From: Candidatus Nomurabacteria bacterium
GTDB taxonomy: Bacteria; Patescibacteriota; Saccharimonadia; Saccharimonadales; JAGQNJ01
DNA length: 64,000 nt
Reading direction: 5' to 3'
Assembly (NCBI GenBank): GCA_023898625.1
Contig: CP060231.1
Location: forward strand, 276,258-340,257
Shown here piece after piece: positions 22,040 through 45,683 of the stretch (the stretch's first letter is position 1; each line of letters begins with the position of its first letter). Under the pieces are notes generated by a model that was given only the letters and a program-made list of their open reading frames with translations, did no database searches and had not been told where the DNA came from. A program made the translations under genes and the position numbers.

Positions 22040-22681
22040 CTAGTTCTGTGGGACTATCGCCCACTCGTCAAGTTTTATTATGAGTTCTTCAGCGTAAGCT
22101 CTATCTAGTTGTCGGAGCTGTCTTTTGCTTACTCTATCTTGGGTTGTGCTTGATTGCATTGTTGCCTCTTCAATAGCAGACATTATGTCAATATCATCTA
22201 AAGAATATTCTACTTCTGAATGTAAGTCGCTGAGGTTAGGGAGCCATGCATGAATGCCTTGTTCGTCAATACGGCTATATCGCCACTCTCCTGACTTGCT
22301 CTGATGCGCCACAAAATAACTATCCGTTTTATACGGTAATGTTGAATAATCCTCTAAGAGCGAAGCTACAGCTTCTCTAACAGAACTATACTCATCGTTC
22401 ATTCTTGCCAAAACCCTGATTTTCTCTACACCATAATCTGGCTTCCCGCCACTTTCTGTCAAAAGAACACTGAATAACTTCTCGTCAACTAAAGAGTGAG
22501 TGTCAATCTGCACCAGATCAACGACAGATTTTTGGGGTTTATCTGCCCGGTAGCTTCTAAGTGAGTCATTAAAAGCATCATCAACAACAAAGCCCAGCTG
22601 ATCTACGAGATCAACAAACACTGGACTATCAGGGCCTAGCTCAAAATTACGGGATTCATCAAAACTACTCATCATGTACAA
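22040..22681 (-). CDS. hypothetical acidic protein
   Basis: 213-aa ORF with no recognisable motif. Confidence 0.5.
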   Translation of the reverse strand: MYMMSSFDESRNFELGPDSPVFVDLVDQLGFVVDDAFNDSLRSYRADKPQKSVVDLVQIDTHSLVDEKLFSVLLTESGGKPDYGVEKIRVLARMNDEYSSVREAVASLLEDYSTLPYKTDSYFVAHQSKSGEWRYSRIDEQGIHAWLPNLSDLHSEVEYSLDDIDIMSAIEEATMQSSTTQDRVSKRQLRQLDRAYAEELIIKLDEWAIVPQN

Positions 22682-22719
22682 TTATACAACAAATGTGACT
22701 TAGAAGCAATTGTTTGGTA

Positions 22720-22748
22720 TTGACATTTTTTGATATTTGTGTTTAAAT
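22720..22748 (+). promoter_or_regulatory. sigma70-like promoter for the high-GC ORF
   Basis: TTGACA (22720-22725), 17-nt spacer, TTAAAT (22743-22748). Confidence 0.45.
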
Positions 22749-22782
22749 GAATTGTCCCATTTCCCGACTAACAAGGAGTATG

Positions 22783-23202
22783 ATGGAGACAATCAAGGTA
22801 GATGGCGAAGCCATCGAAGTAGGAGATATCAAGTTCTCCTACACCAACGGCGTTGCGATGGCGCACCTGCCATCGGCCGTCGTTCGTACCTGGCTCCCCG
22901 CCATGTACGAGGTATACGGCTCGCGCGAGTTCTTCTCACGTGAGATCGAATCTTTCCGGGACACCGGAAGGTGGATATCGTTCACATTCGTGAACCACTC
23001 GCTTCAGAGCGAGGTCATGCGTGTGATCGTGTTGCAGTTGGTCGAGCAATCGGCTCAACTCCATCAGGAGCGTGAGCGAGCTCGTTCACGCAAGAACCAT
23101 CCGTCCAACGGACGGAACTTGGTGGTGGCCAACCCTGACCGCTACCATGAGGCTTCGCCTCAGAAGTTCACCAACAAGCCTCCTTTCATGAGGCGTCGGT
23201 GA
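22783..23202 (+). CDS. hypothetical protein, compositionally foreign (high GC)
   Basis: ORF track 22747..23202. Start placed at ATG 22783 (or 22780) after the AAGGAG RBS at 22773-22778. Hand-counted GC is roughly 57%, against about 40% in the flanks. Basic C-terminus. Confidence 0.6.
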   Translation: METIKVDGEAIEVGDIKFSYTNGVAMAHLPSAVVRTWLPAMYEVYGSREFFSREIESFRDTGRWISFTFVNHSLQSEVMRVIVLQLVEQSAQLHQERERARSRKNHPSNGRNLVVANPDRYHEASPQKFTNKPPFMRRR

Positions 23203-23225
23203 GCTAAGATCGCTGGGGGTGACCA

Positions 23226-23280
23226 TGAGGGGTTGCAGGCCGGTTGACAACGTCGTCAACATCAAGGCCTGCGCCCCTCA
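23226..23280 (+). terminator. GC-rich nested stem-loop downstream of the high-GC ORF
   Basis: TGAGGGGTTGCAGGCC pairs imperfectly with GGCCTGCGCCCCTCA. An inner GTTGAC-AACGTC-GTCAAC hairpin sits inside. No U-tract, so terminator function is uncertain. Confidence 0.35.
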
Positions 23281-23401
23281 GGTCGCAAGCGATTAACATC
23301 TACCAACCTGGGCAGTGTGCCACTCTTTCTATTACAGAAATCGAGAAAATCACTGCCCCTAATTCATATTTCATCATTCACACTAAACAGCTTCTTGGCT
23401 G

Positions 23402-25831: not shown

Positions 25832-26105
25832 CAGGAAACTTAGCAACCACTGCAAACAGATATTCGCCCTCGCCCGTCCGTGTTACGGCACTGTTATGTC
25901 TGCTCGCCTCAGTGTTTAGTTTGCCATTCATATTTAGAAAAACTGCATAAGCGCCAAGTTGTCTAGTATAAAACTCAACAAACTCAAGGTTGGTTTGTTC
26001 ACGACCAAGCGCTTCATCGTATACACCACTTGATTGACGCAACTCCGACCAAGAAGTCTCGATAATTGTTTCTTCAAAGCCTTCTTCTAAAAACATAAGC
26101 TTCAC
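25815..26105 (-). CDS. hypothetical protein
   Basis: 96-aa ORF convergent with tsaD, overlapping it by 17 nt. No domain recognised. Confidence 0.35.
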   Translation of the reverse strand: MKLMFLEEGFEETIIETSWSELRQSSGVYDEALGREQTNLEFVEFYTRQLGAYAVFLNMNGKLNTEASRHNSAVTRTGEGEYLFAVVAKFPATSRD

Positions 26106-26312
26106 ATTATAACAGCGCTTATGCTATTTGTCAATATTGTTTACATAACATCTCTTTGTTATGCTTAGCTTACTAAAACAAAAACGTAGGTACCGTCTCG
26201 AAACCCATCGAGATAGCACATTAGAAACAAATTTATCAGTTATGGAGGGTGGGAATTTAAGCTTGCAGTCGCTAGTGATTGTATAAGTTTGTTTTCACGT
26301 GAAAAGTATTAT

Positions 26313-28932: not shown

Positions 28933-29053
28933 CTGATCGAAATTAGATTACTAGGCAATTATCCCCACCTGGGTAGATAGCTAATTACCTTGGTTGCTTA
29001 TTGATTTTTGTTATGGTTTGTGGTATAGTCAATTAAGCTAAGCAAAGACAAAA

Positions 29054-30100
29054 ATGTCAAACAAAGATCCAATAAATAGCTCCGAATCTCAATATTCTCA
29101 AGAAGATGTTGAGCTTTTTGTTGCAGATTGTATGCGACGAATAGGTCTTGGTCCTCAAAATGATTATTCAAAACTAGACCATTACGGCCCACCTCTTGAA
29201 CCATATCTTCACGAGGATTCTACTGCTGTTCATGACAACGAAGATAATAATCCTTATGTATTTAACCATCGAGACGAATTCTTAGAAGAATTACTTTCTT
29301 TTGCCGATCAAGGTACATCTATACTGGGTGAAGGTTTAGGGCAACTAGAACCAAACATTGGCAAAGCCGTATCGAGCAAACTTCAAGAAGTAATTATGCT
29401 ACTATCCTATGATATTGATGTAGACCTTGGTACCAATATCGGCCCTAAAGATCTAGCCCTACGGGACCTAGCAATTCTATCAATAGCCGTAAGTTCCTCG
29501 CTTGGTTTTGTCGACTATGTAACCGCGACAGGATTTGGTGCTCATAGTTTTATTGAACAAGCCAAAATAACCAATAGGAGCACTGGAACTACTGGAGAAT
29601 TTGAAGTTTGCTATGACTCTATTGATTATTATGATGATCAAGACATTTCATCAGTGAAAGAATCTGATTATGAGGAGTATCCCGATTTTTACCACTATCC
29701 TGGAAAACTCAAGATTAGTGTTAGCGATCACAGAATTGAATTCTCCTTGCAACATGAGTTGCCTGAAGCAGAGGAGCGATACGCGCAAACTATTCATACC
29801 GAACGCGGAGACATAACCACCAACACTATTTCAATTAGAATCGACAAAGATCCTAGCGCTCCACATGGGTATAGTGTTGATATTGGTCGTGACCCTCGTG
29901 AAACAAGCAAGCTATCACGTAAAGGTGACCTTCTAGGTACACTTCTTTCAGCTACGCGAGGTGACGGAAGTCACTTTTACACAGAAGCGGATGAAATTAA
30001 CGAGTCTTCTTTTAGGACTATGACACACAACCTATCCTTGCTTTTAAATTCCATAGATGAAAGGATAAAGCTGGATACTAACTTAAAGGGAGATTCATAA
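29054..30100 (+). CDS. hypothetical acidic protein
   Basis: 348-aa ORF with no motif recognised. Confidence 0.5.
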   Translation: MSNKDPINSSESQYSQEDVELFVADCMRRIGLGPQNDYSKLDHYGPPLEPYLHEDSTAVHDNEDNNPYVFNHRDEFLEELLSFADQGTSILGEGLGQLEPNIGKAVSSKLQEVIMLLSYDIDVDLGTNIGPKDLALRDLAILSIAVSSSLGFVDYVTATGFGAHSFIEQAKITNRSTGTTGEFEVCYDSIDYYDDQDISSVKESDYEEYPDFYHYPGKLKISVSDHRIEFSLQHELPEAEERYAQTIHTERGDITTNTISIRIDKDPSAPHGYSVDIGRDPRETSKLSRKGDLLGTLLSATRGDGSHFYTEADEINESSFRTMTHNLSLLLNSIDERIKLDTNLKGDS

Positions 30101-30126
30101 GTTAGTGCGGTCTATGATTTTGTGCG

Positions 30127-30873
30127 TTACTCGTTTTTACTTAAGCCTAAAAGTAGTTGTTTCATCGCGGTTGCGATGGTTGGGCTTTGAATTATGACCC
30201 CCATAACGTCTTCGCCATAACTCAAAAATGCCGTCTTATCACCGTATACGTCAACTTCTACGGATGCAGTGTATGATTCTTCTGGTAACCAGGTTCTTAT
30301 TACATTGTATATCTTATCTGATTGTGAATATTGGCGACTGTCATCCTTCTCTGTCGTAAAAGCATACGTAGCAATACCAAGATCTGCGCGTCGTTTTTTG
30401 TACTTTTCAAAATACTCATCACCTAGGGTTTGGATCTCTTTTGGTGTACGTAAGAAATAAATATCTTGTTTTGTACGCAAAGTGTCGGCATAGATCTCTT
30501 TTAACCCCTCAACACCCTCTAAAAGCCGTATACCAGGCTTTTCTGTAAAAGTGTAGAAATAGCTCAGCATTTTAGGCATAGCATGTTTTATGGCTTGCTC
30601 AGCCTCAATAAACTGCTTACGCCGTTCCTCTACAAGTTTTTCGATGGCTATTGGGTTTAATGATCGGTATGATATTTTGTTATTATTTGAACTTTTCTCT
30701 ATTAGTCCTAAAGACGCCAACTTATCAAGAATCATATACGTATTGGTGCGAGATTCTCCAGACAATTTAGAAACTTCAGGAGGGGATAGTTCACCTTTTT
30801 CAATTAATAACAGATAGGTTTTTGCTTGAGAATCAGTTAATCCTATTGTTTTAAGAAGATCTGGGGTCATCAT
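30127..30873 (-). CDS. TrmB-family transcriptional regulator
   Basis: N-terminal winged HTH (LGLTDSQAKTYLLLIEKGELSPPEVSKLSGESRTNTYMILDKLASLGLIE) plus a TrmB-type C-terminal domain. Confidence 0.7.
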   Translation of the reverse strand: MMTPDLLKTIGLTDSQAKTYLLLIEKGELSPPEVSKLSGESRTNTYMILDKLASLGLIEKSSNNNKISYRSLNPIAIEKLVEERRKQFIEAEQAIKHAMPKMLSYFYTFTEKPGIRLLEGVEGLKEIYADTLRTKQDIYFLRTPKEIQTLGDEYFEKYKKRRADLGIATYAFTTEKDDSRQYSQSDKIYNVIRTWLPEESYTASVEVDVYGDKTAFLSYGEDVMGVIIQSPTIATAMKQLLLGLSKNE

Positions 30874-30900
30874 TAAGATATTAGCATAGATAATGTGTGA

Positions 30901-30959
30901 TTGTCAATGCTATTTTGACAAACTCATTACATGTTTACATCTGTTATGTATCGATACAT
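30901..30959. promoter_or_regulatory. two palindromic candidate operators in the divergent intergenic region
   Basis: TTGTCAA-N7-TTGACAA (30901-30921) and the perfect 14-bp palindrome ATGTATCGATACAT (30946-30959). Confidence 0.35.
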
Positions 30960-30969
30960 AATCACGATA

Positions 30970-30998
30970 TTGACATTTTGAATATTATTTGGCATAAT
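30970..30998 (+). promoter_or_regulatory. near-consensus sigma70 promoter with extended -10
   Basis: TTGACA (30970-30975), 17-nt spacer ending in TGG, CATAAT (30993-30998). Confidence 0.6.
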
Positions 30999-31004
30999 GT
31001 ACGC

Positions 31005-31590
31005 AGTCGATTGAATGAGAGGCTTCAGTCGAATCGAACATTTTTGGTATAAGTGGTAGTAATAAAACTAACTCTAATGTGGTTGAACTCTCTGTTAACA
31101 GATCGAGATCCTACAATAGAGAATGAAGAATACGGTTGAGCACCGCATATTGTATTGATTGCGAAGTTGCTTTTTTGCATTTCCGCACCGCTGGGCACAG
31201 ATTGGAAACTATACACTTCATCTGTTGTATGCAATAACAGTTGTTGAACTACTAGCCACGAAGTACCATCTGCCTCGTTTAACCTGTTTGATAGCTTTAG
31301 CGTTCGATTTCAGAGAGGCTTTCACGGCGCTAAAGCTACCTTCTAGAATGTTGAATAGATAACTTACGAGAACTGATGTATTTATTGGGCATTCTTATTA
31401 AGAAGCGCCCAAGTTCGTTAAAAGCTTTGTTAGTTGTAGGCACGAGAGGTCACTTGTGAAAGATCATTTCTTTTAAATGAAGCCTCTCATTCGGATTAAT
31501 CCCAAGTGGTCTCTTATGTTAATTTACGGAGCTTTTGGGCTCGGTTTTTTGTAGCTACGTTAGAAAAAGCCGGCCCAAAGGCTTCCGATT
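31005..31590 (+). ncRNA. candidate large structured RNA or long structured 5' leader (unclassified); alternative reading is a MITE-like element
   Basis: No ORF over 70 aa. 15-bp perfect long-range complement 31013-31027/31478-31492. 11-bp hairpin 31292-31302/31328-31338. Hairpin 31385-31412. 20-bp interrupted hairpin 31530-31583. Confidence 0.4.
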
Positions 31591-31660
31591 AGTAGGAGAT
31601 CTTTGGGGCGTGCAGCCCGGCAACACCGCCAAACGCACATAAACCATCGGAGGAAAAACG

Positions 31661-32257
31661 ATGGACGTTAAGATCTTGGAAGAGCTTGCCCCCTGGGCGG
31701 GGAAGGTCCCTCCCACGAAGGAGAGTGCGGAAGGAAGCGAGAGCTTCCTGTACCGCGGTACAGTCAGCTACCGGCCGTGGGGCTATGAAGCCCTTCGGCA
31801 AAGGCATTTTCTGGTGATAGTGCCAGAAAATGGCCTGCCGTATGCGGTGGAGTGGGACGATAGTCTCACTCCTGTCGTGGAGGCCTTTATCGCCTCCGGG
31901 GTTGTGGCGCCGATGGCGCCCTCCTACCGCATCTCTCTCGACGACGTGGTCGGGTGGAGAAGAGCATGGGGTTCAGATTGGATCCCAACAAGCCGTGAGG
32001 GCGTATTGCCCATAACGGCATTGCCACAACACGTGGCTGATGCCCTGGACAGGGACGGCGGATGGACAGACATCCGTGTCGTTGGCAATGAAGTGCGGGC
32101 CACCCAGGACTACCGCTCTGGCGGCTCCTGCGGTCGTTCGCAAGAGATGGTCTTCGCTACCTTGAAGACAACCTCCGAAGGAGTGAGGTTCAAGACCACC
32201 GTCCATTCTGTCGCGTATGAGGACAGCCTGGGCAGAAAGAGAGGTACATTCACCTAA
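31661..32257 (+). CDS. hypothetical protein, compositionally foreign (high GC)
   Basis: ATG preceded by a GGAGG RBS (31648-31652). The first 150 nt hand-count to about 59% GC. The antisense ORFs on the other strand are typical high-GC artefacts. Confidence 0.6.
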   Translation: MDVKILEELAPWAGKVPPTKESAEGSESFLYRGTVSYRPWGYEALRQRHFLVIVPENGLPYAVEWDDSLTPVVEAFIASGVVAPMAPSYRISLDDVVGWRRAWGSDWIPTSREGVLPITALPQHVADALDRDGGWTDIRVVGNEVRATQDYRSGGSCGRSQEMVFATLKTTSEGVRFKTTVHSVAYEDSLGRKRGTFT

Positions 32258-32570
32258 AAACAAAAAGGCCTCGCATTAGCCTTACATCACCGCAAACAAT
32301 GCGCCTACAACGGTAAGGCACCGTAAAGAACTATTGCTGTTGCAACCCGGCAACGATAAATCACTCTGTTAGTAATAGCAGACATGAAGCAACCCATGCT
32401 TTGTGAGGGGATTTGCTTGATTCGGCACAAGCTAGAGTGTACGTTCCTGTACAGGGAATATGGCACAATACCGAGGTCATTGTGGTAGACCGCTCTTTAG
32501 AGCAAAGGCCACCCGGTTTTCTCGAATCCCGGATTGTAGCACACTCAGTGCTATGGTAAGTCGAGTTTCA

Positions 32571-32645
32571 CCCCAATCATCGCTCACCAGCTCAGGTGAG
32601 TTCGCTGAACAAGCGATTGATAGATGATTGGGGTATTTTTATTTG
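32571..32645 (+). terminator. branched intrinsic terminator
   Basis: 11-bp closing stem CCCCAATCATC/GATGATTGGGG (32571-32581/32623-32633). It encloses two small hairpins and is followed by TATTTTTATTT. Confidence 0.55.
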
Positions 32646-32649
32646 TGCT

Positions 32650-33510
32650 CTAGTCTTCAAATTCGAGGGCGTTTTTGATGCGTGAAATGCTTTGCTCTGG
32701 GTTATTGCTATTAAACCAAAGCACTTTCCAGCCTTTTTTGCTGGCAGTCATCAAGTTTGGCCGACTGTCGTCTATCAACAGTATTTCTGATGGCTGACAA
32801 TTACTCCGATCTTCTGCTTCCTCATAGATTGCTTCTTCTGGCTTTATTGCTCCGACTTCTGAAGAATCGATAATAACGTCGTAGTTGATATTAGGCACAA
32901 GATTGTGGTCAATTAATTCATTCAAAAATCCGGGCATTATATTGGTCATTAACCCGACATGGTAATTTTCAATAGCCCAAGATAATAAATCGTCCATTCC
33001 CTGAACTAGCTCTACTTCTTCTGTGTAGTACTTAGCCCAGTCAATATTATCTATATTAAGATCATTTGCGAATCGTTTATTAAACTCCTCTATGGATATT
33101 TCACCCCTGCAAACCATATCGTTATGTTGCCAAAAGGCCATTTCTACAACATCTGGCGATAAATCATATTCTTCGCTAATTCGCTCCAGAGCGCGGTGAA
33201 AAAACTGAACCAAACATCCGTTGACGTCAAAATACACAAAACGCACCCCAGATTTACTGACCTTTTTTGGCACAATTGGTGGGAATCCAGAGCCTTGAGA
33301 TTCTGATATACCCAACAGTTCGTTTAAGGTTAACCCAAGCACACTGGCTATCCGTTGAATAGTAAAAATTGACGGAGCCTTAATAGCACCTCGCTCAATC
33401 TTTGCCAGGGTAGAATATGAAATATCTGCTTTTTGGCACAACGTTTGTTGTGTCAATCCTGCCTTTATTCTGGCTTCTTGTAATTGTTTTCCGAGACCCA
33501 CCTCGTCCAT
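32650..33510 (-). CDS. XRE-family HTH domain fused to HAD-like hydrolase domain
   Basis: N-terminal HTH (LTQQTLCQKADISYSTLAKIERG). C-terminal HAD-like motifs (YFDVNGCLV ... LLIDDS). Confidence 0.65.
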   Translation of the reverse strand: MDEVGLGKQLQEARIKAGLTQQTLCQKADISYSTLAKIERGAIKAPSIFTIQRIASVLGLTLNELLGISESQGSGFPPIVPKKVSKSGVRFVYFDVNGCLVQFFHRALERISEEYDLSPDVVEMAFWQHNDMVCRGEISIEEFNKRFANDLNIDNIDWAKYYTEEVELVQGMDDLLSWAIENYHVGLMTNIMPGFLNELIDHNLVPNINYDVIIDSSEVGAIKPEEAIYEEAEDRSNCQPSEILLIDDSRPNLMTASKKGWKVLWFNSNNPEQSISRIKNALEFED

Positions 33511-34190: not shown

Positions 34191-35198
34191 ATGGATATTA
34201 TGAAAATAATACTACTAGCACTGGTCAAGGTATTAATATTGGCTTGTTTGGGTCTGTTCATTATAGGCGTTATTTTTAAGGTTACTTTTGGAAATCAAGA
34301 TTTTATCAAGCAGTCGCTGAATAATAGCGGGTTGTATTCAACAGTAGAGAAGGGGATAAAACAACAAATAGCCACCCAAGTAGCATCGGTCAGCAATACA
34401 ACAACACTAAATACAATAATTAGCCAAGCAATCGACAAATCAGTAACTAGTGATCTTATACAACAAAATATTGAAAGTACCATTTCTAATGCTTACGCTT
34501 GGTTGAGTGGAGAAAATACAAATCTCGTCATCTCTTACAACGTAGACGATGCACAAGCTACTTTCTTACAAGAGGTTACTGATGGATTACGTGAAAGAGC
34601 TAAAACCTTGCCCAAATGCTCCAGAAAAATACGGCCAACTACAAATGACATATTCACCATTAACTGTATCCCTCCAGGCACAAACATAGAAGGGGAAATT
34701 TTGGAAGCGCAACAACAGTTCAACCAGCAAATAGCAACTCAACCACAAAAGGTAGACTTAACAAAAATAACCAATAATTCTAGTTCACCAATAAACAGAT
34801 TGCCGAATGTTTACAAAATTCTAACCTTGCTTCCTCTAATCTCAATATTGCTAATTGTGTTGCTACTCATATTTGAGTTACTTTTGTCACGACCAAGATA
34901 TCGTGCATTACGAACAGTTGGCATAGCTTCAATTTTGTGTGGAGTTCTTTGTTTGATATGCAGATTTATTACTCCTATTATTCTTTATGAAAGGATAAAA
35001 CATATCTCATTAAACACTGATGTGGCAGATTTTTCTTTACCTGTTCAAAAAATTTTTCAGGACATAGTAAGTCAGATAAGCTCAACACTACTAACGATAG
35101 GTGTATCACTTATAGCTTTAGGTTGTTTGTGTCTAGGGTTCTATATCTTTATCAGAAAAACCAATACCAGAAATGAACTACCTAAGAACATTCCTTAG
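34191..35198 (+). CDS. hypothetical membrane protein
   Basis: N-terminal TM, a large extracytoplasmic region and C-terminal TMs. Confidence 0.5.
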   Translation: MDIMKIILLALVKVLILACLGLFIIGVIFKVTFGNQDFIKQSLNNSGLYSTVEKGIKQQIATQVASVSNTTTLNTIISQAIDKSVTSDLIQQNIESTISNAYAWLSGENTNLVISYNVDDAQATFLQEVTDGLRERAKTLPKCSRKIRPTTNDIFTINCIPPGTNIEGEILEAQQQFNQQIATQPQKVDLTKITNNSSSPINRLPNVYKILTLLPLISILLIVLLLIFELLLSRPRYRALRTVGIASILCGVLCLICRFITPIILYERIKHISLNTDVADFSLPVQKIFQDIVSQISSTLLTIGVSLIALGCLCLGFYIFIRKTNTRNELPKNIP

Positions 35199-36881: not shown

Positions 36882-36958
36882 GCACCCGTAGCTCAGCTGG
36901 ATAGAGCGTTGGCTTGCGGAGCCAGAGGCCACAGGTTCGAATCCTGTCGGGTGTACCA
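36882..36958 (+). tRNA. tRNA-Arg (anticodon GCG), CCA encoded
   Basis: Manual fold: acceptor with G1-U72, D-arm GCTC/GAGC, anticodon loop TTGCGGA, T-arm ACAGG-TTCGAAT-CCTGT. Confidence 0.85.
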
Positions 36959-38164
36959 TTCTAGACGGAGAGCCTCAAGAAGGCTCTTTTTCATCTGTTG
37001 AGACATTGTTCTAACCTTTTCTATCTCAGCAACGAAGTGTTTTGTGTTTTCCTGCAATGGTAATAGCCATTCGTTAGGTGTTATTTGCAGTTTTCCGTCT
37101 AAAAGCACTGGGTTCTGACCAATTACTAACAGTATTTCTTTCTTATCAGCTATATCACCGTTTACGAACTTAGCGTTAGCGTTCATGAACTTACTTATTA
37201 GATTAGTCATATAGTCGTACCAGCTCTCAGTGTTTTCATTACTGGTAGCCTGTTGCTTATGCAGTTCTTTTAATTCAGCCTTGAGCTTTGCAGATTTCTC
37301 TATAAAGTCTTTTTCTTCTACGAGCTTGCGAGTAGACATGTCTAACAGGGTATCTAGCTGGTCTTTTAAGCCCCTTATAGCTTGCTCCTGCATAGTTTCT
37401 ACACTCTTACGCTCTGGTATCTCAGCTTGTGCCATTTGGTTAATAGCATCCATGCTTCAATCATAGAGTTCTGGTATGAGTTCCCAGTTATTCAATTCAT
37501 CTACACATTCTGTAAATAGCTCATCTTCGGTTTTATAACCATACTTCTTAATCTGGCCGCAAGGGCGTTTACCAGTACAGTGACAGTAAGTATTTACATG
37601 TGTAACACCCTTAGAGTTAGTGCGTTCCTTGCTTTGAGCCGTAATCATACAGCCACACTCACCACAGCGTATAAAGCCACGTAGCACGAATTGTTTACGA
37701 GTTGCGAAACGCTTACCACCATGACGACCTAGTAATAGTTGGATTTTGTCGTACTCCTCTTGGGTCATTAAAGCTGGAAAATCTGCTACATACAATTTGT
37801 CTTCATCATAAGGGTCAGGCACCCAACCTGCGTAACGAACGTTACGGAACATGTAATAGAGCGATGAGCGGCCAAGTGGACCGCCACTCTTTTTCTTACG
37901 CTGAACCGTGCGATAGCCCCATTCATTATTCATAATATCTAAGATTTGCTGGACGCTGTATTCGCCTGTAAGCATTAAATCTACAGCCTGACGGAGTAAT
38001 GGAAAGCGTTCAGGGTCTTTGTATACGGTTTTATTTATACGGTCATTCAAGTAGCCCTCTGAGGCTACGCCAGTAATGCCACCAATCTTACGCTTCTTCT
38101 CATTACAACGCTTCACGTCCTTACTCAGCTTCGCTGAGAAGTATTGGGACTGGCTCATAGTCAA
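36893..38164 (-). pseudogene. large serine recombinase remnant: catalytic domain missing, split by an in-frame stop
   Basis: 37457..38164 encodes the recombinase domain plus a zinc beta-ribbon (CGECGCMITAQ...CHC). 36893..37453 encodes the coiled-coil C-terminal part. No N-terminal resolvase domain is present. The last ~22 codons run antisense through tRNA-Arg. Confidence 0.6.
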
Positions 38165-38534
38165 ATTTATCTATAAACCATATGTTGTCGTACTCTCTAT
38201 GTGCTGGATCAGTCTCATGCCAGTCACCCCAGACAGTATTTGCCCACTCTTTGGGTATGTTAGGGTTCACTGACTTGGCAATCTCAAGTTCTTCCTGAGC
38301 GTCTATTACTTGGTTGCGATACCAGTTTTCATCAGAACGAGTTTCAATTACCTCTGCATTGGTTAATGTATTTAATGCCCGTTCTTCACGACTAGCATTC
38401 TTAAAATTATCTGTTTTTGAGAGTTTAGCGTCCCACTCAAAAACCCAGCGTTCATCAAAGAAATCGGTGCCGTTGAAGTACAACGTATTCAGCTTTGTAA
38501 CCACTAATTGTAGCCATTCGTTATTATCTGTCAT
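38121..38534 (-). CDS. hypothetical protein (island-borne)
   Basis: 137-aa ORF overlapping the recombinase remnant by 44 nt. Not resolvase-like. Confidence 0.4.
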   Translation of the reverse strand: MTDNNEWLQLVVTKLNTLYFNGTDFFDERWVFEWDAKLSKTDNFKNASREERALNTLTNAEVIETRSDENWYRNQVIDAQEELEIAKSVNPNIPKEWANTVWGDWHETDPAHREYDNIWFIDKFDYEPVPILLSEAE

Positions 38535-38640
38535 TGGTGTTAGTATATGCGTCCAATAAAGCTAACTCAAATACCAGTGATTAGACCAATTTGAGATAAT
38601 AGATATATAGGGTAAGTACAAAAACAAAAGGAGTCTTATT

Positions 38641-38871
38641 ATGTTTAGCAATCCAGTGGGAAGACCCACAAAAATGAATATCAGAACGATGGTGAAGTTG
38701 GCTGACGCACTGAAGAACAACTACAGCCTGACTGACGCTTGTAAGTGGGCTAGGGTTGGCAGAACCACCTACTACCGACACATAAATAATAACGTGGTCT
38801 TCGCAACTAAGATGAATTATGCGATAGAGTGCCGTGATAAAGTGTCATTTAATTTTGGCACACTCTCCTAG
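38641..38871 (+). CDS. small HTH DNA-binding protein (resolvase/terminase-small-subunit-like HTH)
   Basis: GRPTK...SLTDACKWARVGRTTYYRH helix-turn-helix pattern. 76 aa. Confidence 0.5.
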   Translation: MFSNPVGRPTKMNIRTMVKLADALKNNYSLTDACKWARVGRTTYYRHINNNVVFATKMNYAIECRDKVSFNFGTLS

Positions 38872-39190
38872 TTCAACTTGCTGATTCGTACACGACTATA
38901 ATAAAAGTAGTGTTTCATAATTGGTAGCTCTCTGATGGTGGAAAATGGCGTTGAGGGGTCAAAAATCTGAAAAAATAATGCGTAACGATACGTAGTCAAA
39001 ATCAACCCATTTAGGTGAACGGGATATAGTGCCCTCTGTAAGCGTTCCAGGGGTCGTAGGTGAGGTTTTAAGGCAAAAGTTGAATAAAGTACCGTGTGGA
39101 AAATAAGAAGTACTTTGACATCATTTTACTCATTGACAAGCTTATGCTTTGGTTTCCCGTAACAAGTGTTTATAATTTACACTTAAGAAT

Positions 39191-39883
39191 ATGAGTGAGA
39201 GCCTACACAAACCAACTATTGCTATATTAGCCTCAGGAAGTGGCTCTACAGCCGAGACATTTATCCACGCTACTCAAGATGGTCGTGTTGATGCAGAAGT
39301 CGGTCTAATAGTATGCAATAACCCACCAGAAAAGGCAGGAATATTTGCTAGGGCTTCTAGGTTAAATGCACTCTATGGGCTTGATGTTGAAACTATAGAA
39401 ATAAGTGGTCGTACGCACCCCGATGGCAACGTGGGGCGTGGACAAACACTTAGCGAGTCATCTGCTATATGCGAGCGTATCAGTAACGGTGGCTTTGCTC
39501 ACGTAGCTCTTATGGGTTATATGAAGATGGTTCGCGGTGAACTCATTGAGGAGTACGGCTGGCAACCAATTTACAGTTCTATCTATCAAGCAAGAATGAC
39601 TAACACACACCCAGGTCCACTGCCAGAAACAGAAGACACGTACGGCATACACACTTCTGAACAAGTACTAGAGCTTGGCATGTCTGCTTCACGTCACACA
39701 GTACATCTTGTGGCAGATGGAATAGATAGGGGTCCAAAGATTGCTGAACACCCTGTGGAAGTTATTGAAGGCGATACTGCACAGAGTTTGTTTGATAGAG
39801 TTCAAGTAGTAGAAAAGGCAGCATTGCCATACGTTATAGGTAAGTTCCTGCAGGAACAAGGAGGTTATCTTGGCAATTCATGA
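39191..39883 (+). CDS. purN: phosphoribosylglycinamide formyltransferase-like
   Basis: IAILASGSGST N-terminal motif. Formyltransferase core with NTHPGPLP (variant of NIHPSLLP). 230 aa. Confidence 0.75.
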   Translation: MSESLHKPTIAILASGSGSTAETFIHATQDGRVDAEVGLIVCNNPPEKAGIFARASRLNALYGLDVETIEISGRTHPDGNVGRGQTLSESSAICERISNGGFAHVALMGYMKMVRGELIEEYGWQPIYSSIYQARMTNTHPGPLPETEDTYGIHTSEQVLELGMSASRHTVHLVADGIDRGPKIAEHPVEVIEGDTAQSLFDRVQVVEKAALPYVIGKFLQEQGGYLGNS

Positions 39884-42707
39884 GATTAGAGTCACACCTA
39901 TCGAGGGCGACCCAATTGGACACGAAGCACAGCAAGAAGCGGAACGCACACTTGGCTTAGACAGCATAGAATCAATTCGCACAGCGAAAGTATATCGTGT
40001 TCAGGGTGTGAGCGAAGAAGAAGCACACACGTTAGCGGGACAATTGCTCACAGACCCTGTGAGTGAGCAATACAGTCTTGACGAACCAGTAGGTTTCGAG
40101 ACTCCTCACGTTGTAGAAGTGGCATATAAGCCTGGTGTGATGAACCCAGAAGCATCTTCAATCATGAAAGCCGCTCAAGACCTTGGGATTAGCCAACAAG
40201 CCGTTGATTCTTCAAGGGAGTATGCGTTTTTCGGAGATGTAGAGCCAACTCAAGTCGACGAAGTGGTTGGACGATTACTAATGAACAAAACAGTTGAACA
40301 TGTTGTTACTGAAAAACCATCGTCTCTAACTTTTGAGGGGAATGTTGGACCTATCAGCATAGTTCCTATTAGAGAGGCTTCAGAGCCAGAGTTAGCAGAG
40401 CTATCAAAGGACAAGTTATTTCTTAATGATGAGGAGATGGGTGTCGTTCAGAAGCATTTCCGAAAGCTTGACCGTGATCCAACTGATGCAGAGCTTGAAA
40501 TTATTGCTGCACGTTGGAGTGAGCATTGTGGTCATAAGACGTTCAATGCAAAAGTTGTAGTTGATGGCGTTGAGAAAGAACCGCTCTACACACGTATTAA
40601 GAATGCGGCTAAAGAGCAGTTCGGTGATTTAGTAGTATCAGCATTTGGTGATAATTCAGGTGTTATGAAATTTTATGAGGGTCAAGCTATTTGTGGCAAG
40701 GTTGAGACACACAACAGCCCGTCAGCTATTGAGCCGTACGGTGGTGCAATGACGGGTAGTGGTGGTGTGTTCCGTGACATAATGGGAACTGGTCAGGGTG
40801 CTAAGACAATCATTTCTACTGATATGTTTTGTTTTGCTCCGCCAGACCTTGACGAGAGTCTTTTGCCTTCTGGCACCTTGCGCCCCGATTACCTACAAAG
40901 ACGAGTTGTTCAAGGAGTGCGAGACTATGGTAATCGTATGGGCATTCCAACGGGAAACGGCTCTGTACATTATCACGAAGATTTTAGAGCCAAGCCTACT
41001 GTAATAGTAGGAGCATACGGAATCATGCCAGAGTCACGTGCAGAAAAAGGCGAACCATTGGTCGGTGACCTAGTTGTTATTATTGGTGGCAAAACAGGTC
41101 GTGACGGTATACACGGTGCTACCTTCTCGTCAGGCGAAATGACTGACCGTACAGCTAATGTGAATTCAAGTGCAGTTCAAATTGGAAACGCAATTGAAGA
41201 AAAGCGTATGTTCGATGCTTTAATTGAAGCAAGAGATTTAGGATATATTCGTGCATTAACCGACTGTGGTGCTGCGGGATTCTCATCTGCTATCGGTGAA
41301 ATCGGAGAGAATATCGGTTTAACAGTAGATATTAGCAAGGCACCACTTAAATACCCAGGACTTGCCCCGTGGGAAATCTGGCTTAGTGAATCACAAGAAC
41401 GTATGGTTGCGGCAATCTCACCAGACAACATAGAGGACTTTCTTGCCGTTAGTCGTAAATATAATGTTGAATCCACTGTACTCGGTGTGTTTGATGGGAG
41501 TTATACCTTAACCGTGAATTACGGTGAACAAAATGTTGCAGAACTTGATTACGAGTTCCTGTCTGGCGGTCTACCGCAACGTGTTATGCAAGCACATTGG
41601 AAACGAGTTGATGTACCTGAAGTAAGTCCTGACATTCCACAAAACGAACAAGAGTGGGTTGATAGGCTTAAGGCTGTTCTCTCTCACGGTAATGTTTGTT
41701 CCAAAGAGCCAATAGTTAGACAATATGACCACGGGGTTCAAGGTGGCAATGTTGTTTCTCCTTTTGGAGGCGTAAAGCAAGATGGACCAAATGACGCTCT
41801 GGTCGTACGACCTATGCTTGATAAGCCTTATGGTGTTGTTCAATCCCACGGGATGAACCCAATACTTAATAGGTTAGACCCATTTGAAGGAACAGTCTGG
41901 GCTATTGCTGAGGCTGCAGCAAATTATGTTTCTGCTGGCGGCAACATTGATGAAGCAGCAGCAGTTGGTAACTACATTTGGCCGTTCCCAGATGAAGAAG
42001 CTATGGGTTCACTAGACCGTTCTGTTGACGCTGCTGTAGAAATGATGCAACGGCTGAAGCTTCCTGTTATATCAGGCAAAGACAGTCTCTCATCAACCTA
42101 CCGAGGCAAAGACGGACAAGTTATCAAGATTCCGCCCGTTTACACAATGTCTATATTTGGTCGCATACCTGACGTAGAGAAGACTATGACAAGTGACATA
42201 AAACAAGCAGGATCAACCCTTGTCTTAGTTGGAAATCTAGGCGAAGGAATGGCGGGGTCAGCTTATTATGATATTGCTGGTGGGAGTAGCAACAATATAC
42301 CGCTTGTTGATAAAGAAACACTACCAGCAGTGCTTGGTTCCGTACATCAAGCTATAGTCGGTGGCAAAGTCCTTGCTTGTCACGATATAAGCGAAGGTGG
42401 TGTAATCTCGGCTGTTGCAGAAATGTGTTTTGGTGGCAATGTTGGCGTAGAACTTGAGCCTAATAATGTATCAGTCTCTGAAATGGATAAGTTCCTGTTT
42501 AATGAAACGGCTGGCTGTTTTGTTGTGGAAGTTGAAAGTGATGAAGTAGCACAAGAATTATTCAGCAATGTTCCATACCAAAAGCTTGGTCAAACAACTA
42601 CTGATGAGACTATTCAGGTCCGTGAGCAAAATGGAGTCGTCTTTACTGTAGGTACGGACGAACTTAAGCGTGCATGGCAAGCACCTATGAAAGGGATTTT
42701 TCACTAA
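39870..42707 (+). CDS. purL: phosphoribosylformylglycinamidine synthase subunit PurL with two N-terminal PurS-like repeats
   Basis: TTG start 5 nt after an AAGGAGG RBS. The first ~150 aa hold two PurS-like modules. The rest is small-PurL type (AIR-synthase-like repeats, SESQERM motif). 945 aa. Confidence 0.85.
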   Translation: MAIHEIRVTPIEGDPIGHEAQQEAERTLGLDSIESIRTAKVYRVQGVSEEEAHTLAGQLLTDPVSEQYSLDEPVGFETPHVVEVAYKPGVMNPEASSIMKAAQDLGISQQAVDSSREYAFFGDVEPTQVDEVVGRLLMNKTVEHVVTEKPSSLTFEGNVGPISIVPIREASEPELAELSKDKLFLNDEEMGVVQKHFRKLDRDPTDAELEIIAARWSEHCGHKTFNAKVVVDGVEKEPLYTRIKNAAKEQFGDLVVSAFGDNSGVMKFYEGQAICGKVETHNSPSAIEPYGGAMTGSGGVFRDIMGTGQGAKTIISTDMFCFAPPDLDESLLPSGTLRPDYLQRRVVQGVRDYGNRMGIPTGNGSVHYHEDFRAKPTVIVGAYGIMPESRAEKGEPLVGDLVVIIGGKTGRDGIHGATFSSGEMTDRTANVNSSAVQIGNAIEEKRMFDALIEARDLGYIRALTDCGAAGFSSAIGEIGENIGLTVDISKAPLKYPGLAPWEIWLSESQERMVAAISPDNIEDFLAVSRKYNVESTVLGVFDGSYTLTVNYGEQNVAELDYEFLSGGLPQRVMQAHWKRVDVPEVSPDIPQNEQEWVDRLKAVLSHGNVCSKEPIVRQYDHGVQGGNVVSPFGGVKQDGPNDALVVRPMLDKPYGVVQSHGMNPILNRLDPFEGTVWAIAEAAANYVSAGGNIDEAAAVGNYIWPFPDEEAMGSLDRSVDAAVEMMQRLKLPVISGKDSLSSTYRGKDGQVIKIPPVYTMSIFGRIPDVEKTMTSDIKQAGSTLVLVGNLGEGMAGSAYYDIAGGSSNNIPLVDKETLPAVLGSVHQAIVGGKVLACHDISEGGVISAVAEMCFGGNVGVELEPNNVSVSEMDKFLFNETAGCFVVEVESDEVAQELFSNVPYQKLGQTTTDETIQVREQNGVVFTVGTDELKRAWQAPMKGIFH

Positions 42708-43490
42708 ATGAGCAACCTAGAAGTATGCGTACTAAAGACGGACGGTATTAACTGTGATGAAGAAATGGCGAATGCTTTTCAAGTAGCTGGGGCTACACCT
42801 GAAACCGTACATATTAACCAACTGCGAAGTGGCGAACGTCAGCTTGACCAGTACGGTATTCTAGCAATACCAGGGGGTTTCTCTTACGGAGATGATATTG
42901 CTTCAGGTAAGGTGCTGGCAACAGAGCTTACGTCCTATCTATCTGACCAGTTACAAGATTTTGTCGATAAAGGTAAGCCTGTTATCGGAATCTGTAATGG
43001 CTTTCAGGTGCTTGTTAGGACTGGCTTGTTGCCAAATCGCAAGCTGAATGAACAACAAGTAACTCTTGCTGATAATGAAGTTGGAAGATTTGAGTGTCGC
43101 TGGATTGACCTAGCAGTTGGTCGGTCAGCGTGTAAGTTTGTAAGTCCAGAAGATTTTGCAGAACAACCAATTCCAATGCAAACGGCTCACGGTGAAGGTA
43201 GATTCTTTGGTGGTGAAGATGACATTCGGGAGCTAAAAGAAAACGGACAGTTTGTTTTTCGTTATACTACGCCTGACTTAGGACAGCCGAGTGGCTATCC
43301 TGAAAATCCAAATGGTGCAGTAGACGATATTGCAGGAATTTGTGACCCAAGTGGCTTAGTGCTTGGTATGATGCCACACCCTGAACGCTCAGTGGCTGCT
43401 TTTCACCCACACCGAGTACGCACAGAAGCTGCACGAAACGCAGCAAACACAATTTTTAGTAATATCGTTACTTACGCAAAGGAGATGTAA
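42708..43490 (+). CDS. purQ: phosphoribosylformylglycinamidine synthase glutaminase subunit
   Basis: Class I glutamine amidotransferase motifs (PGGFSYGDD, GICNGFQ, MPHPER). Confidence 0.9.
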   Translation: MSNLEVCVLKTDGINCDEEMANAFQVAGATPETVHINQLRSGERQLDQYGILAIPGGFSYGDDIASGKVLATELTSYLSDQLQDFVDKGKPVIGICNGFQVLVRTGLLPNRKLNEQQVTLADNEVGRFECRWIDLAVGRSACKFVSPEDFAEQPIPMQTAHGEGRFFGGEDDIRELKENGQFVFRYTTPDLGQPSGYPENPNGAVDDIAGICDPSGLVLGMMPHPERSVAAFHPHRVRTEAARNAANTIFSNIVTYAKEM

Positions 43491-44623
43491 TGACTGAACG
43501 AAGAGGACCGATACAGGATGTAAATATTGAGCTTGGTGATGATGTTTCTAAAATGCTGTATGAAGCTTCAAAGCAAACCCACGACAACCGACCAGGCTTG
43601 CTTGTTGAGTTTCACGAATCATTTTCTGGGCTACGAGCAATTCCAGGCACGATGCTTAAAGACGTAGATAATATGTATCTTAATCTTGCATTTGATGGTG
43701 TCGGAACAAAGGTTGAAGTATCAGAAAGGCTTGATGACCATTCAGTTGTAGCACACGATTTATTTGCAATGGTATGTGATGACGCAGTTGTTCGGGGAGC
43801 TGAACCAGTTGCGATAGGCTCAATCTTAGATGTACGGCAGCTTAATGACACAAAACACACTAGAACGGCAGTTAGACAACTATCACAGGGCTATGTTGAA
43901 GCAGCTAAGGCGGCTGGTGTAGTGGTCGTTAATGGTGAAGTTGCCGAACTTGGGGATAGAGTTGGTGGTTATGGGGATTTCAATTATAACTGGGGCGCTA
44001 CGGTACTTTGGTTTGCTCATAAGGACAGAATACTTACGGGTCATGAGATTCAGCCTGGCGATTCACTAGTAGGTCTTGCTGAACACGGTTTCCGCTCAAA
44101 TGGCATTACAGACGTAAGAAAAGCTATGCTGGAACACTACGGACCACAATGGCAAGACGTAGTAGTTAAAGAACTCGGCGAACTTTCATTAGGTAAACTT
44201 GTACAGAAACCATCAATTATTTATTCACGATTCATATCGGAACTTACAGGTGGCTATGACATTGATAAAGAGCCTAAGGCTGTGGTAAGCGGTGTGGCAC
44301 ACATTACTGGTGGTGGGCAGCCAAGTAAGCTAGGCCGAATGCTTGAGCCGTCAGGACTCGGCGTTACTATTGACACACCAATTGAGCCACCACGCATAAT
44401 GACGGAAGTGCAAAAGCTGCGAGGCTTCTCCGACGAAACAGCATACGGTAAATGGCATTTGGGTTCTGGTATGGTTATTGCCACTTCTGAACCAGAAAAA
44501 GTACTCGCAGAAGCAGAAAGCTTTGGACTATCTGCACAGACTATTGGGCAAATCACAGACGAGCCAGGTATCCGTATCAAGAATCGTGGTGCAGTTCAAG
44601 ATTCAGAGTGGCTAAGCTTCTAA
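43490..44623 (+). CDS. purM: phosphoribosylformylglycinamidine cyclo-ligase (AIR synthase)
   Basis: DGVGTK motif and PurM N/C domain architecture. Start overlaps the purQ stop (TAATG). Confidence 0.85.
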   Translation: MTERRGPIQDVNIELGDDVSKMLYEASKQTHDNRPGLLVEFHESFSGLRAIPGTMLKDVDNMYLNLAFDGVGTKVEVSERLDDHSVVAHDLFAMVCDDAVVRGAEPVAIGSILDVRQLNDTKHTRTAVRQLSQGYVEAAKAAGVVVVNGEVAELGDRVGGYGDFNYNWGATVLWFAHKDRILTGHEIQPGDSLVGLAEHGFRSNGITDVRKAMLEHYGPQWQDVVVKELGELSLGKLVQKPSIIYSRFISELTGGYDIDKEPKAVVSGVAHITGGGQPSKLGRMLEPSGLGVTIDTPIEPPRIMTEVQKLRGFSDETAYGKWHLGSGMVIATSEPEKVLAEAESFGLSAQTIGQITDEPGIRIKNRGAVQDSEWLSF

Positions 44624-44685
44624 AGTAGAAAGCTTATGCTTTGTATCTGTTGGTCGGTAGAGCATAATTAGATTAGGTACTAATT

Positions 44686-45683
44686 ATGATCATAAACCAA
44701 CATTTCGTAGATTTACTATCAACTCTTACGCCTACAGCTTCGGAGAAAACAGGCTATGCTTCCCACAGGACTTCAATTGAAGCGAAGCTTGAGTCTTCGT
44801 TTAATGTAACGTTCACCATGGAAACAGGTTCATTTAGAAGTGGTACGGGCGTGAGATACCACACCGACTTAGATGTACTTGCCTCAATACCTTCCACTTA
44901 TCAAAAAGACAATTCTTACAATATGTTATTGGCTATTAAAAAGCCTTACAAGAACGGTATGGTGAAAGCGGAATATACATCAGAACACCATCTGTGGTCT
45001 GTGCCTTTAGTGGGAACAAGACCATTGAAATCACACCTGGATATTATAAGTATCAGACTGATTACCGCTATAACGTTTACAAAATCCCAGATTTTGATGG
45101 TGATTGGCAAATTGCAACACCGTCAGCACATATAGCCTACGTTAATGGCGTGAACAACAGGTTGGATAAGAAAGTTAAACACGTTATTCGCTTAATCAAA
45201 GATATTAAATATGCACATAATATCCCTATATCTTCGTTTTATCTTGAGATGAGGACAGCAAAGCATTGCGATGATGAAACATTCATATCTTACGCAGAAG
45301 ACGTACACAATACGCTCAATAGGCTCGTTAATGACGAGCTGGCGTTAATGCAAGACCCTGTAGGAATCGCAGGATATATTGAGCCTTGCAGTACTGACGC
45401 AAAGAAGACCGAAGCACTTTCAAATCTTACATCTGTCAGAAATCGTGCTAAATGGGCTATTGAAGAAGAAAAGGCTGGGAATCACACAAAGGCTCTTGAA
45501 TGGTGTTTTATTGAAGTTGACTCAAAAGAAGGCGGCGTCAAAACGTTGCGAGAAGGATTATCAGAGCTTGTAGCACGACAACAAGAAATAAACGGAACCG
45601 CATACATACCTTCACCAAAGGCTCGTGAAAGAGCTGAGAAAAACATAAAGAATGGCCGTCAGAACTACGAGGTTGATGAGTAA
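44686..45683 (+). pseudogene. SMODS/CD-NTase-like nucleotidyltransferase interrupted by a -1 frameshift
   Basis: Frame 1 (44686..45135) carries GSFRSGTGVRYHTDLDV (the GS...DxD NTase core). The continuation (W..ATPSAHIAYV...IRLIKDIK...SFYLE) is in the -1 frame from about 44943 (ORF 44994..45683). The shift maps to T-AAA-AAG at 44937-44943. Confidence 0.6.

Follow-up and report, generated by a model that had tools for sequence, protein, structure and literature searches.

Does a GC-rich gene in GC-poor DNA record a foreign origin, or is its composition tied to something in the gene itself? The question is raised by ORF198, a gene for a protein of 198 amino acids in a stretch of 64,000 nucleotides from Candidatus Nomurabacteria bacterium (Saccharimonadales), positions 276,258 to 340,257 of contig CP060231.1 in assembly GCA_023898625.1; this whole stretch is called the window here, and coordinates are counted from its first letter. 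A reading of the window made from the letters alone (the sequence-only reading) had picked out the gene as a high-GC orphan and put forward an actinobacterial host or an actinophage as its source. On balance, we favor another explanation, in which the high GC content of ORF198 is tied to selection for mRNA structure and not to an actinobacterial origin. The hairpins of its mRNA depend on which synonymous codons it uses and on the sequence in which they follow each other, and a non-homologous gene elsewhere in the window shares the same combination of features.

31661-32257, + strand: ORF198, an orphan coding sequence (CDS) of 59% GC with a hyper-structured mRNA, marked by a frame-specific ratio of nonsynonymous to synonymous substitution rates (dN/dS), by GC contents of the third, first and second codon positions in the order GC3>GC1>GC2, and by its fold z score

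Composition, coding status and folding of ORF198

ORF198 has a GC content of 59.0% (GC1, GC2 and GC3 of 0.59, 0.50 and 0.67, respectively) and of 59.3% over its first 150 nt, where a hand count in the sequence-only reading had given about 59%; the flanking genes, put there at about 41%, measure 38 to 41%, with GC3 of 0.28 to 0.39. The window as a whole has 40.2% GC. Its 600-nt segments average 40.2% with a standard deviation of 3.7%, and the highest of them, starting at 31601, reaches 59.7%, about 5 standard deviations above the mean, making this locus the strongest compositional outlier of the 64 kb. Among these segments there is one other peak, of 54.8% near 22750. The GC content steps sharply near 31500 and 32650, delimiting a GC-rich part of 1.1 kb (approximately 31500-32650).

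The exact ORF198 protein is encoded on nine contigs from NCBI, ENA and Logan, one of them an NCBI contig of 939,581 bp, all with the gene order TrmB, ORF198, HTH-HAD and with 99.8 to 100% identity. A second allele lineage, with 92% protein identity, was found in 61 index blocks in the same context. The frame is unbroken in every full-length allele, and dN/dS, calculated by the NG86 method from the 44 differences between the two alleles, is 0.31 in frame +1 and 1.2 to 1.7 in the other forward frames. The codon-position periodicity noted above is that of a coding sequence, and we estimate the chance of an open frame of 198 codons at 59% GC at about 0.001 per frame. The predicted GGAGG ribosome-binding site is present at 31649-31653, 7 nt 5' of the ATG, which is an ideal spacing for a Shine-Dalgarno (SD) sequence. 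The predicted protein is acidic and soluble, with a grand average of hydropathy of -0.30 and no transmembrane-like segment (maximum Kyte-Doolittle value over 19 residues, 1.45), and its amino acid usage is rich in V, G, A, and R, as is typical of high-GC genomes. From these sequence signatures, ORF198 looks like a genuine, lineage-restricted protein-coding gene.

The CDS folds far more stably than expected, with a z score of -6.7 against dinucleotide shuffles and of -6.1 against synonymous-codon shuffles, in which codons are permuted within the gene so that the protein and the codon usage (GC content) are kept; for the second allele the latter value is -5.7. The same codon shuffle gave -1.7 for the neighboring TrmB gene, -0.6 for ORF348, +0.3 for HTH-HAD and +0.7 for a 210-aa gene. 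Because shuffles that keep both protein and GC content lose the fold, the excess folding of ORF198 is tied to the placement of its synonymous codons. In a scan of the whole window in sliding 300-nt segments, the mean z score was -0.4, and extreme values were confined to 31351-32250 (down to -8.5) and 22651-23400 (down to -9.8), the two GC-rich patches of the window. The predicted fold of the CDS is a chain of local hairpins.

Folding stability is retained across alleles. The minimum free energy (MFE) of the second allele is -283.9 kcal/mol, compared with -288.3 kcal/mol for the first, whereas placing the same 45 substitutions at random gave -259.2 ± 8.1 kcal/mol, a loss of about 29 kcal/mol, and none of 80 such randomizations was as stable as the second allele. 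Some allelic changes are locally compensatory, for example the replacement of a U-A by a C-G pair at 31807/31830.

The sister gene at 22780-23202

The second GC peak of the window coincides with a unit that resembles that of ORF198 in its organization, here called the sister element.

22721-23400, + strand: sister element, consisting of a promoter, an AUG-occluding hairpin, a CDS of 140 aa (ORF140, 22780-23202), a structured 3' untranslated region (UTR) and a terminator

The promoter has TTGACA at 22721, and the start hairpin is predicted to hold the AUG in its stem and the SD sequence in its loop. ORF140 has 56% GC and a GC3 of 0.71, and the patch reaches up to 55% GC; the fold z score is -14.1 over 22750-23400, and that of the CDS against codon shuffles is -8.4. 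A comparison of ORF140 with ORF198 gave no family relationship.

ORF140 has orthologues in related genomes, with 71 to 88% amino acid identity and conserved synteny. In all six of them the CDS has 55 to 56% GC, GC3 of 0.66 to 0.71 and z scores of -5.1 to -7.4, compared with GC3 of 0.31 to 0.36 and z scores of -1.6 to +0.8 for the genes that flank them. The sequence-only reading had named orthologues of the same composition in related low-GC genomes as evidence that would speak against its proposal of foreign DNA; the sister gene has such orthologues, and ORF198 does not. Insertions and deletions (indels) in the sister CDS are all multiples of 3, whereas those in the UTR are not, and in the 160-nt core of the 3' UTR only 3 to 10% of positions differ, against 11 to 25% in the CDS. 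Between distant pairs, dS of the sister gene is 0.5 to 0.65, about half the 1.0 to 1.2 or more of its neighbors, and its dN is 2 to 5 times theirs; between close pairs, it has diverged more than they have. One pair shares an allele despite otherwise saturated divergence. The consensus fold comprises 198 pairs, with 96.7% of cells paired. Compensatory changes occur at eight pairs, a number reached by 23 of 500 shuffles, and the covariation score, well above slid controls, was matched in 2 of 500. The consensus energy favors the sense strand (-251.5 kcal/mol, versus -202.9 for the antisense), and G-U cells outnumber A-C cells by 132 to 13, a count that is biased by the way the structure was derived. 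Taken across these orthologues, the kept GC3 and z scores, the reduced dS, the covariation and the strand bias argue that the composition and fold of the sister gene are actively maintained by selection.

Origin of the GC-rich DNA

ORF198 lies on an accessory segment, whose other genes have no such composition.

28936-32646, no strand: accessory insertion of 3.7 kb between the stop codons of the convergent genes for ValRS and HTH-HAD, absent from relatives
29054-30100, + strand: ORF348, an acidic hypothetical protein, 39.8% GC, GC3 of 0.28
30127-30873, - strand: TrmB-family (TrmBL2-like) winged-helix regulator (PF01978, E = 1.6e-11)

Besides these two genes and ORF198, the insertion contains a divergent leader of 788 nt. 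In relatives L010 and L011, the gap between ValRS and HTH-HAD is only 404 and about 190 nt long, respectively; because the sequence at this site is short and unrelated in both, 28936-32646 is an insertion. The flanks of L010 have about 93 to 95% DNA identity, with homology ending near 28935 and restarting near 32647. The synteny comparison proposed in the sequence-only reading thus places the gene on DNA that is missing from close relatives. No integrase, tRNA or direct repeat was found at the borders, and no mobility genes. ORF348 had no match in Pfam, NCBIfam or PADLOC and no relative in metagenome contigs. The nearest solved relatives of the regulator are the TrmBL2 structures 5bqt and 5bpd (E = 2.7e-7), and its nearest homologues outside the species, with about 60 to 65% identity, are common in Saccharibacteria and Patescibacteria. 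Only its N-terminal winged helix is matched, and searches of Pfam and NCBIfam gave no match to the TrmB C-terminal sugar-binding domain. In length and best matches it resembles TrmBL2, a chromatin-like protein of archaea that acts as a global repressor and lacks the sugar-binding domain.

Saccharibacteria live as epibionts on Actinobacteria, and a recent transfer from a high-GC donor, either the actinobacterial host or a phage, would leave unameliorated GC on just such an insertion, missing from relatives of about 94% identity, with hairpins as an incidental result; the V-, G-, A- and R-rich amino acid usage would fit as well. We nevertheless regard this explanation as unlikely. The searches identified no donor. 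A word-indexed search of 5.8 billion proteins found no ORF198 homologue outside one 90%-identity cluster of the same species, an exhaustive HMMER search of 1.84 billion representatives found none beyond that cluster, and no match was found in Pfam, PHROGs, NCBIfam, PADLOC or the PDB sequences, nor any relative in IMG/VR, 50,697 phage records or 72,556 plasmids. In all, about 15 billion proteins were covered. The orphan status of the gene was borne out in this way, and its proposed host or actinophage origin was left unsupported. Moreover, the GC-rich part makes up just 1.1 kb of the 3.7-kb insertion, the rest being native in composition (GC3 of 0.28 for ORF348 and 0.33 for the TrmB gene), and the TrmB protein is of the Saccharibacteria type. 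Two features expected of an island gene, atypical composition across the whole segment and an identifiable donor, are thus both missing. Transfer would also leave the codon-shuffle z score of -6 unexplained, and the sister gene holds the same composition across diverged low-GC relatives.

The GC-rich 1.1 kb might instead be a large structured noncoding RNA, with the reading frame a by-product of stop-poor sequence. Structured RNAs in AT-rich genomes are classically flagged by their high GC content (PMC8723152). The z score is extreme over 31350-32250 and still significant in the 3' region, and ORF198 is an orphan whose protein has no confident predicted fold. The frame-specific dN/dS, a GC2 well under GC3, the strong SD sequence 7 nt from the ATG and the low chance of so long a frame all point the other way, as do the multiples of 3 among the indels of the sister CDS and a bona fide AAA_28 ATPase gene (see below) that is equally hyper-structured. 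With Rfam 15, nothing at the ORF198 locus reached the gathering score, and at E values up to 10 only chance-level fragments of microRNA, ToxI and DicF families appeared; the known RNA families tested included riboswitches, T-box, GOLLD, ROOL, OLE, HEARO, raiA, group I and II introns, RNase P, and tmRNA. We therefore consider a noncoding origin improbable.

Still less probable, in our judgment, is that GC3 rose through GC-biased gene conversion at a hot spot of recombination, with structure following as a secondary effect. Such conversion has been proposed for bacteria (PMC4450053), and both GC-rich genes are mosaic and are exchanged between lineages. The two allele lineages of ORF198 differ at 44 of 597 CDS positions (7.4%), whereas only 0.7 to 0.8% of positions differ in ORF348 (0.7%), the TrmB gene, the 480-nt leader domain and the 3' UTR (0.8%). 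The differences cluster in three patches, and since these occur in all combinations, the alleles are recombinant mosaics. A shift of GC3 from 0.33 to about 0.68 far exceeds the gene-conversion effects reported for bacteria, and conversion would yield neither codon-order-dependent hairpins nor the reduced dS of the sister gene. The variable region was also considered as the target of a diversity-generating retroelement and rejected, the differences hitting all bases in a mosaic of two haplotypes without specificity for adenine. A second copy of the region was not found in the window, and the search for a reverse transcriptase was confined to the window.

Very improbable, too, is that the hairpins act as DNA, either as a cruciform or single-strand signal or as part of a palindromic mobile element (a miniature inverted-repeat transposable element, or MITE) carrying the reading frame. 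In the leader, 450 nt lie between the arms of a perfect 15-bp inverted repeat (see below), single-sequence z scores are similar on both strands, and assemblies break at the long hairpin. Against this, the window and about 500 kb of related loci contain no second copy, every contig shows the same context, and the sister gene favors the sense strand in both its consensus energy and its excess of G-U over A-C cells. That a high-GC fragment was joined to a Saccharibacteria contig during assembly, as the abrupt GC steps near 31500 and 32650 might suggest, is refuted: identical junctions occur on more than 30 independent contigs, and the nine contigs and 61 index blocks described above, with flanks 99.8 to 100% identical, stem from different samples and assemblers.

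Several points weigh against selection for mRNA structure as the source of the high GC content. The argument for selection is made by analogy, since the sister gene is not homologous to ORF198, and only two closely related allele lineages are available for ORF198, so that there is no deep covariation. Exact MFE pairs are conserved between these alleles at chance level (19 broken, 21.9 expected, P = 0.19), and comparing energies does not tell which strand of ORF198 carries the fold, the single-sequence z score being similar on both. ORF198 lies on an insertion, and a foreign donor may have gone unsampled. Finally, AlphaFold2 gave no confident fold for the protein (pLDDT, 39.6), which could be marginal or recently born; ORF140 scored 52.7, and the models of both proteins were unfit for a fold search because these values are too low. 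With these points set against the codon-shuffle results, the retained stability of the second allele and the conduct of the sister gene, selection for mRNA structure is still the explanation that we hold, on balance, to be the better one.

An apparent 155-nt insertion in L026 turned out to be a scaffold gap of Ns with duplicated ends (approximately 5685-5840), without biological meaning, and falls at the hairpin at 31527-31586. The contigs of two relatives (L013 and L018) stop exactly at the HTH-HAD stop codon. Structured or variable sequences seem to break assemblies here.

Other sites in the window vary as well. The intergenic space between TsaD and ValRS (25833-26154 in the window, 3827-4494 in L002 and 6142-6795 in L010) is a second variable hot spot, with inserts that differ by strain: a 202-aa ORF in L002 and, in L010, a GC-rich 146-aa membrane-like ORF (z = -2.6). 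L006 joins 36958 directly to 45827, so that about 8.9 kb (36959-45826) next to the tRNA-Arg gene (36882-36958) is absent; in the window this segment holds purine-biosynthesis genes (formyltransferase and FGAM synthase), a strain-level presence/absence polymorphism. In L006 and L007, seven substitutions fall within 24 nt (34566-34589) of a gene for a 335-aa membrane protein, the surrounding kilobases being identical, and similar clusters were seen at 22843-22876 and 26162-26170. The cluster at 34566-34589 looks like a short recombination tract or a multinucleotide event.

The transcription unit, similar genes and known systems

The regulator gene runs divergently from the ORF198 transcription unit, which would comprise the following elements.

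30944-30961, no strand: 18-bp perfect palindrome with halves TTATGTATC and GATACATAA (= TTATGTATCGATACATAA), 8 nt 5' of the -35 box, between the divergent TrmB and ORF198 promoters
30970-30998, + strand: sigma-70-type promoter, TTGACA-17-CATAAT with an extended TG, 11 of 12 consensus matches
31013-31492, + strand: multibranched leader domain of 480 nt and native GC, with a perfect 15-bp closing helix (31013-31027/31478-31492)
31500-31608, + strand: rod-like hairpin of 107 nt and about 43 bp, with helices of 17 and 26 bp (pairing probability, 0.89 to 0.94)
31644-31664, + strand: start hairpin with arms CCAUCG and CGAUGG around GAGGAAAAA, with the SD sequence in the loop and 5' arm and the AUG in the 3' arm
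32258-32569, + strand: body of the 3' UTR with several hairpins, including the second TGCARCCCGGCAAC copy at 32341-32354
32570-32645, + strand: branched (three-way-junction) intrinsic terminator with a U-tract, consisting of a 12-bp closing helix followed by AUUUUUAUUU

By consensus match, the promoter is the top site in 30500-33000 and the sole strong sigma-70-like site on the strand of ORF198. The palindrome next to it, 2 of whose 18 positions (30948 and 30960) are changed in the second allele, is a candidate operator. Transcription would start from this promoter, probably under the control of the divergent TrmBL2-like regulator, and would yield a single RNA of 1.65 kb that begins with the closed multibranch leader and the long rod hairpin. 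In the full-length fold, the closing helix of the leader, which encloses 450 nt, has a pairing probability of 0.99. The z score is -5.4 on the + strand and -5.8 on the - strand for 31005-31600, and -5.2 for 31500-31720; the leader domain had no match in Rfam.

The sequence-only reading had proposed that translation is gated by pairing of upstream sequence with the start region, through TCCGAT with ATCGGA and through two decamers containing AGATCT. The hexamers exist, TCCGAT at 31584-31589 as described and ATCGGA at 31646-31651, one base off the 31645-31650 given, and the decamers lie at 31597-31606 (AGATCTTTGG) and 31670-31679 (AAGATCTTGG). The proposed helix is missing from the predicted fold, in which TCCGAT and AGATCTTTGG sit inside the rod hairpin and are unpaired with the start region, and the two pairings, which cannot share one nested helix, are topologically awkward. 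Because the SD sequence and the AUG sit in the local hairpin at 31644-31664, structural gating is plausible through this other element, which is unchanged in both allele lineages. Occlusion of the start codon, plausible from the predicted fold, would mean that translation occurs only once the hairpin opens.

Downstream of the CDS, the noncoding stretch carries the hairpins ascribed to it, but its GC content is only moderately raised (46.9% over the 392 nt of 32258-32649), and its z score over 32255-32650 is -4.8 on the + strand and -2.9 on the - strand. The small hairpin motif said to occur on both sides of the CDS is there (TGCAGCCCGGCAAC at 31611-31624 and TGCAACCCGGCAAC at 32341-32354), with marginal significance: we estimate that about 0.3 direct repeats matching at 13 of 14 positions are expected by chance within 1.9 kb, and a shuffle test of the motif (0.04 expected) is circular, its pattern having come from the two copies themselves. 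The branched terminator with its U-tract was confirmed, its closing helix (32570-32581/32623-32634; probability, 0.99; two small hairpins inside) measuring 12 bp where an 11-bp stem had been claimed; a simple terminator scan missed it because it is branched. Long-range helices between the CDS and the 3' UTR are predicted in the full-length fold, and this pairing was dropped as a candidate, its ungapped-helix score being matched in 46 of 300 shuffles and thus not above chance; RNAduplex on the whole CDS and 3' UTR sequences was uninformative. With its string of stable CDS hairpins, closed by the branched terminator, the RNA would be expected to persist for long and to offer little access to single-strand RNases, which would be the benefit of the fold. 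On the - strand at 32265-32283, just past the ORF198 stop codon, there is also a terminator-like hairpin followed by TTTTTGTTTTT; if it is used, the HTH-HAD transcript would run antisense across the whole ORF198 3' UTR.

Genes with similar folding occur elsewhere in Patescibacteria. The window and about 90 Patescibacteria loci together supplied 471 ORFs with 100 aa or more for a quick codon-shuffle scan, in which the median z score was -0.42 and 15 ORFs scored below -5, most of them GC-enriched relative to their own locus (r = -0.37). Shuffling again with 30 to 40 shuffles confirmed the following.

L044, ORF133: z score of -13.1
L056, AAA_28 ATPase, Pfam-supported: z score of -6.6
L096, ORF294: z score of -6.1
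L066, ORF120: z score of -6.1
L086, ORF126: z score of -5.8
L068, ORF124: z score of -5.3

Two further ORFs flagged by the quick scan, L091 (MetE-like) and L058 ORF156, were not confirmed by full-length shuffles. An all-versus-all comparison of the hyper-structured ORFs showed their proteins to be unrelated. High GC content alone is insufficient for the effect, since GC-rich ORFs with ordinary z scores exist (L010 6195-6635, z = -2.6). ORFs that lie divergent and upstream of TrmB homologues scored below -5 in 10 of 88 cases, compared with 3 of 177 elsewhere (Fisher P = 0.0012), in a post hoc test in which two locus pairs are near-duplicates. The enrichment emerged only with this per-ORF, strand-resolved codon-shuffle test; when segments were counted in a scan of MFE residuals at 80 TrmB loci, structured patches were not clearly more frequent near TrmB. 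In L086, as in the window, a divergent promoter and a leader of about 1 kb lie between TrmB and a GC-rich hyper-structured ORF. The leader of its ORF126 contains, at about 930-1035 on the - strand, a small, strongly hydrophobic ORF of 33 aa (MSAKSKVVVAVMAMTHAIGVGLILTLYIFFR) with a strong SD sequence, resembling a type I toxin.

As a tentative proposal, which we hold with less confidence than the explanation for ORF198 itself, Patescibacteria may carry a class of hyper-structured, GC-enriched protein-coding RNAs, small, fast evolving and often orphan, in which synonymous sites build a near-continuous chain of hairpins, with occluded starts and conserved structured UTRs, and which lie preferentially divergent from a TrmBL2-like regulator; ORF198 would belong to this class as a member specific to its species. 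If such a class exists, its RNAs might be long-lived, translation-gated or dual-function in these epibionts, and they would offer a possible route from structured RNAs to new proteins. Four other stretches of these loci (L113 4101-4600, L112 2701-3100, L011 3751-4350, and L040 801-1300) are strongly structured with no convincing ORF or Rfam match; they are candidate new noncoding RNAs in Patescibacteria, judging from their predicted folds.

GC outliers in epibiont genomes are easily taken for host DNA. Here that view found no support, and selection on RNA folding explains the composition at least as well, which calls for caution with transfer screens based on GC content or codon usage in the candidate phyla radiation. 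Codon-shuffle z scores of -6 to -13 for a CDS are far beyond what is usual for cellular genes. Several such genes in one phylum-level group, with conserved UTRs, raised allelic diversity and a recurrent regulator neighbor, suggest unstudied posttranscriptional control in organisms whose genomes are very small and in which few regulators are known. Selection on local mRNA structure in CDSs, occluded start codons and ORFan island genes are already known. In the searchable literature we found no description of genes like these for Saccharibacteria, and no effect this large, coupled to a GC3 shift of 0.3 to 0.4, recurring in unrelated small genes of Patescibacteria or possibly linked to TrmBL2-like regulators.

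The unit can be set beside several known systems. Obelisks and viroid-like RNA elements, reportedly described by Zheludev and colleagues in 2024, are likewise highly structured over about 1.1 kb, half of which is taken up by a single orphan ORF of about 200 aa; Obelisks are RNA-only, circular and rod-like, whereas ORF198 lies in chromosomal DNA with fixed flanks and folds as a chain of local hairpins. Like ORFan island genes, ORF198 is species-specific, compositionally atypical and without homologues, and it occupies a variable intergenic hot spot, but it comes without mobility genes, on a segment of mosaic composition, and its own composition is linked to codon-order-dependent folding. With the GC-rich intergenic noncoding RNAs of the DIMPL type (PMC8723152, PMC11109978) it shares a long, strongly structured GC-rich stretch in an AT-rich genome. 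The GC-rich core of these 1.1 kb, in contrast, is protein coding, and no Rfam family matches it.

The mRNAs of hok/Sok type I toxins are compact and very stable, with a sequestered SD sequence and start codon and a 5'-3' fold-back. ORF198 is predicted to have a local AUG hairpin and long-range helices, the latter not above chance, but its product, at 198 aa, is soluble and acidic and unlike a small (less than about 60 aa) hydrophobic toxin, and no antisense RNA gene was identified. Densely paired coding RNAs with structure-occluded starts and long-range control of translation are also found in the genomes of single-stranded RNA phages (Leviviricetes). Units of the ORF198 type differ in being chromosomal and DNA encoded, with sigma-70-type promoters, one gene and a length of 0.7 to 1.7 kb, and searches of PHROGs, IMG/VR and phage sequences gave no replicase, maturation or coat protein homologues for the ORF198 unit.

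The closest parallel is the selection for local mRNA structure in bacterial coding regions that Katz and Burge are said to have detected in 2003 with synonymous-codon shuffle tests. As there, the native ORF198 CDS folds better than its synonymous permutations, and the signal resides at synonymous sites. The genome-wide effects have a mean |z| well below 1, whereas here z scores of -6 to -13 occur in only a few small genes, in which, unlike known cases of local-structure selection, they are coupled to a GC3 shift of 0.3 to 0.4 and to structured UTRs.

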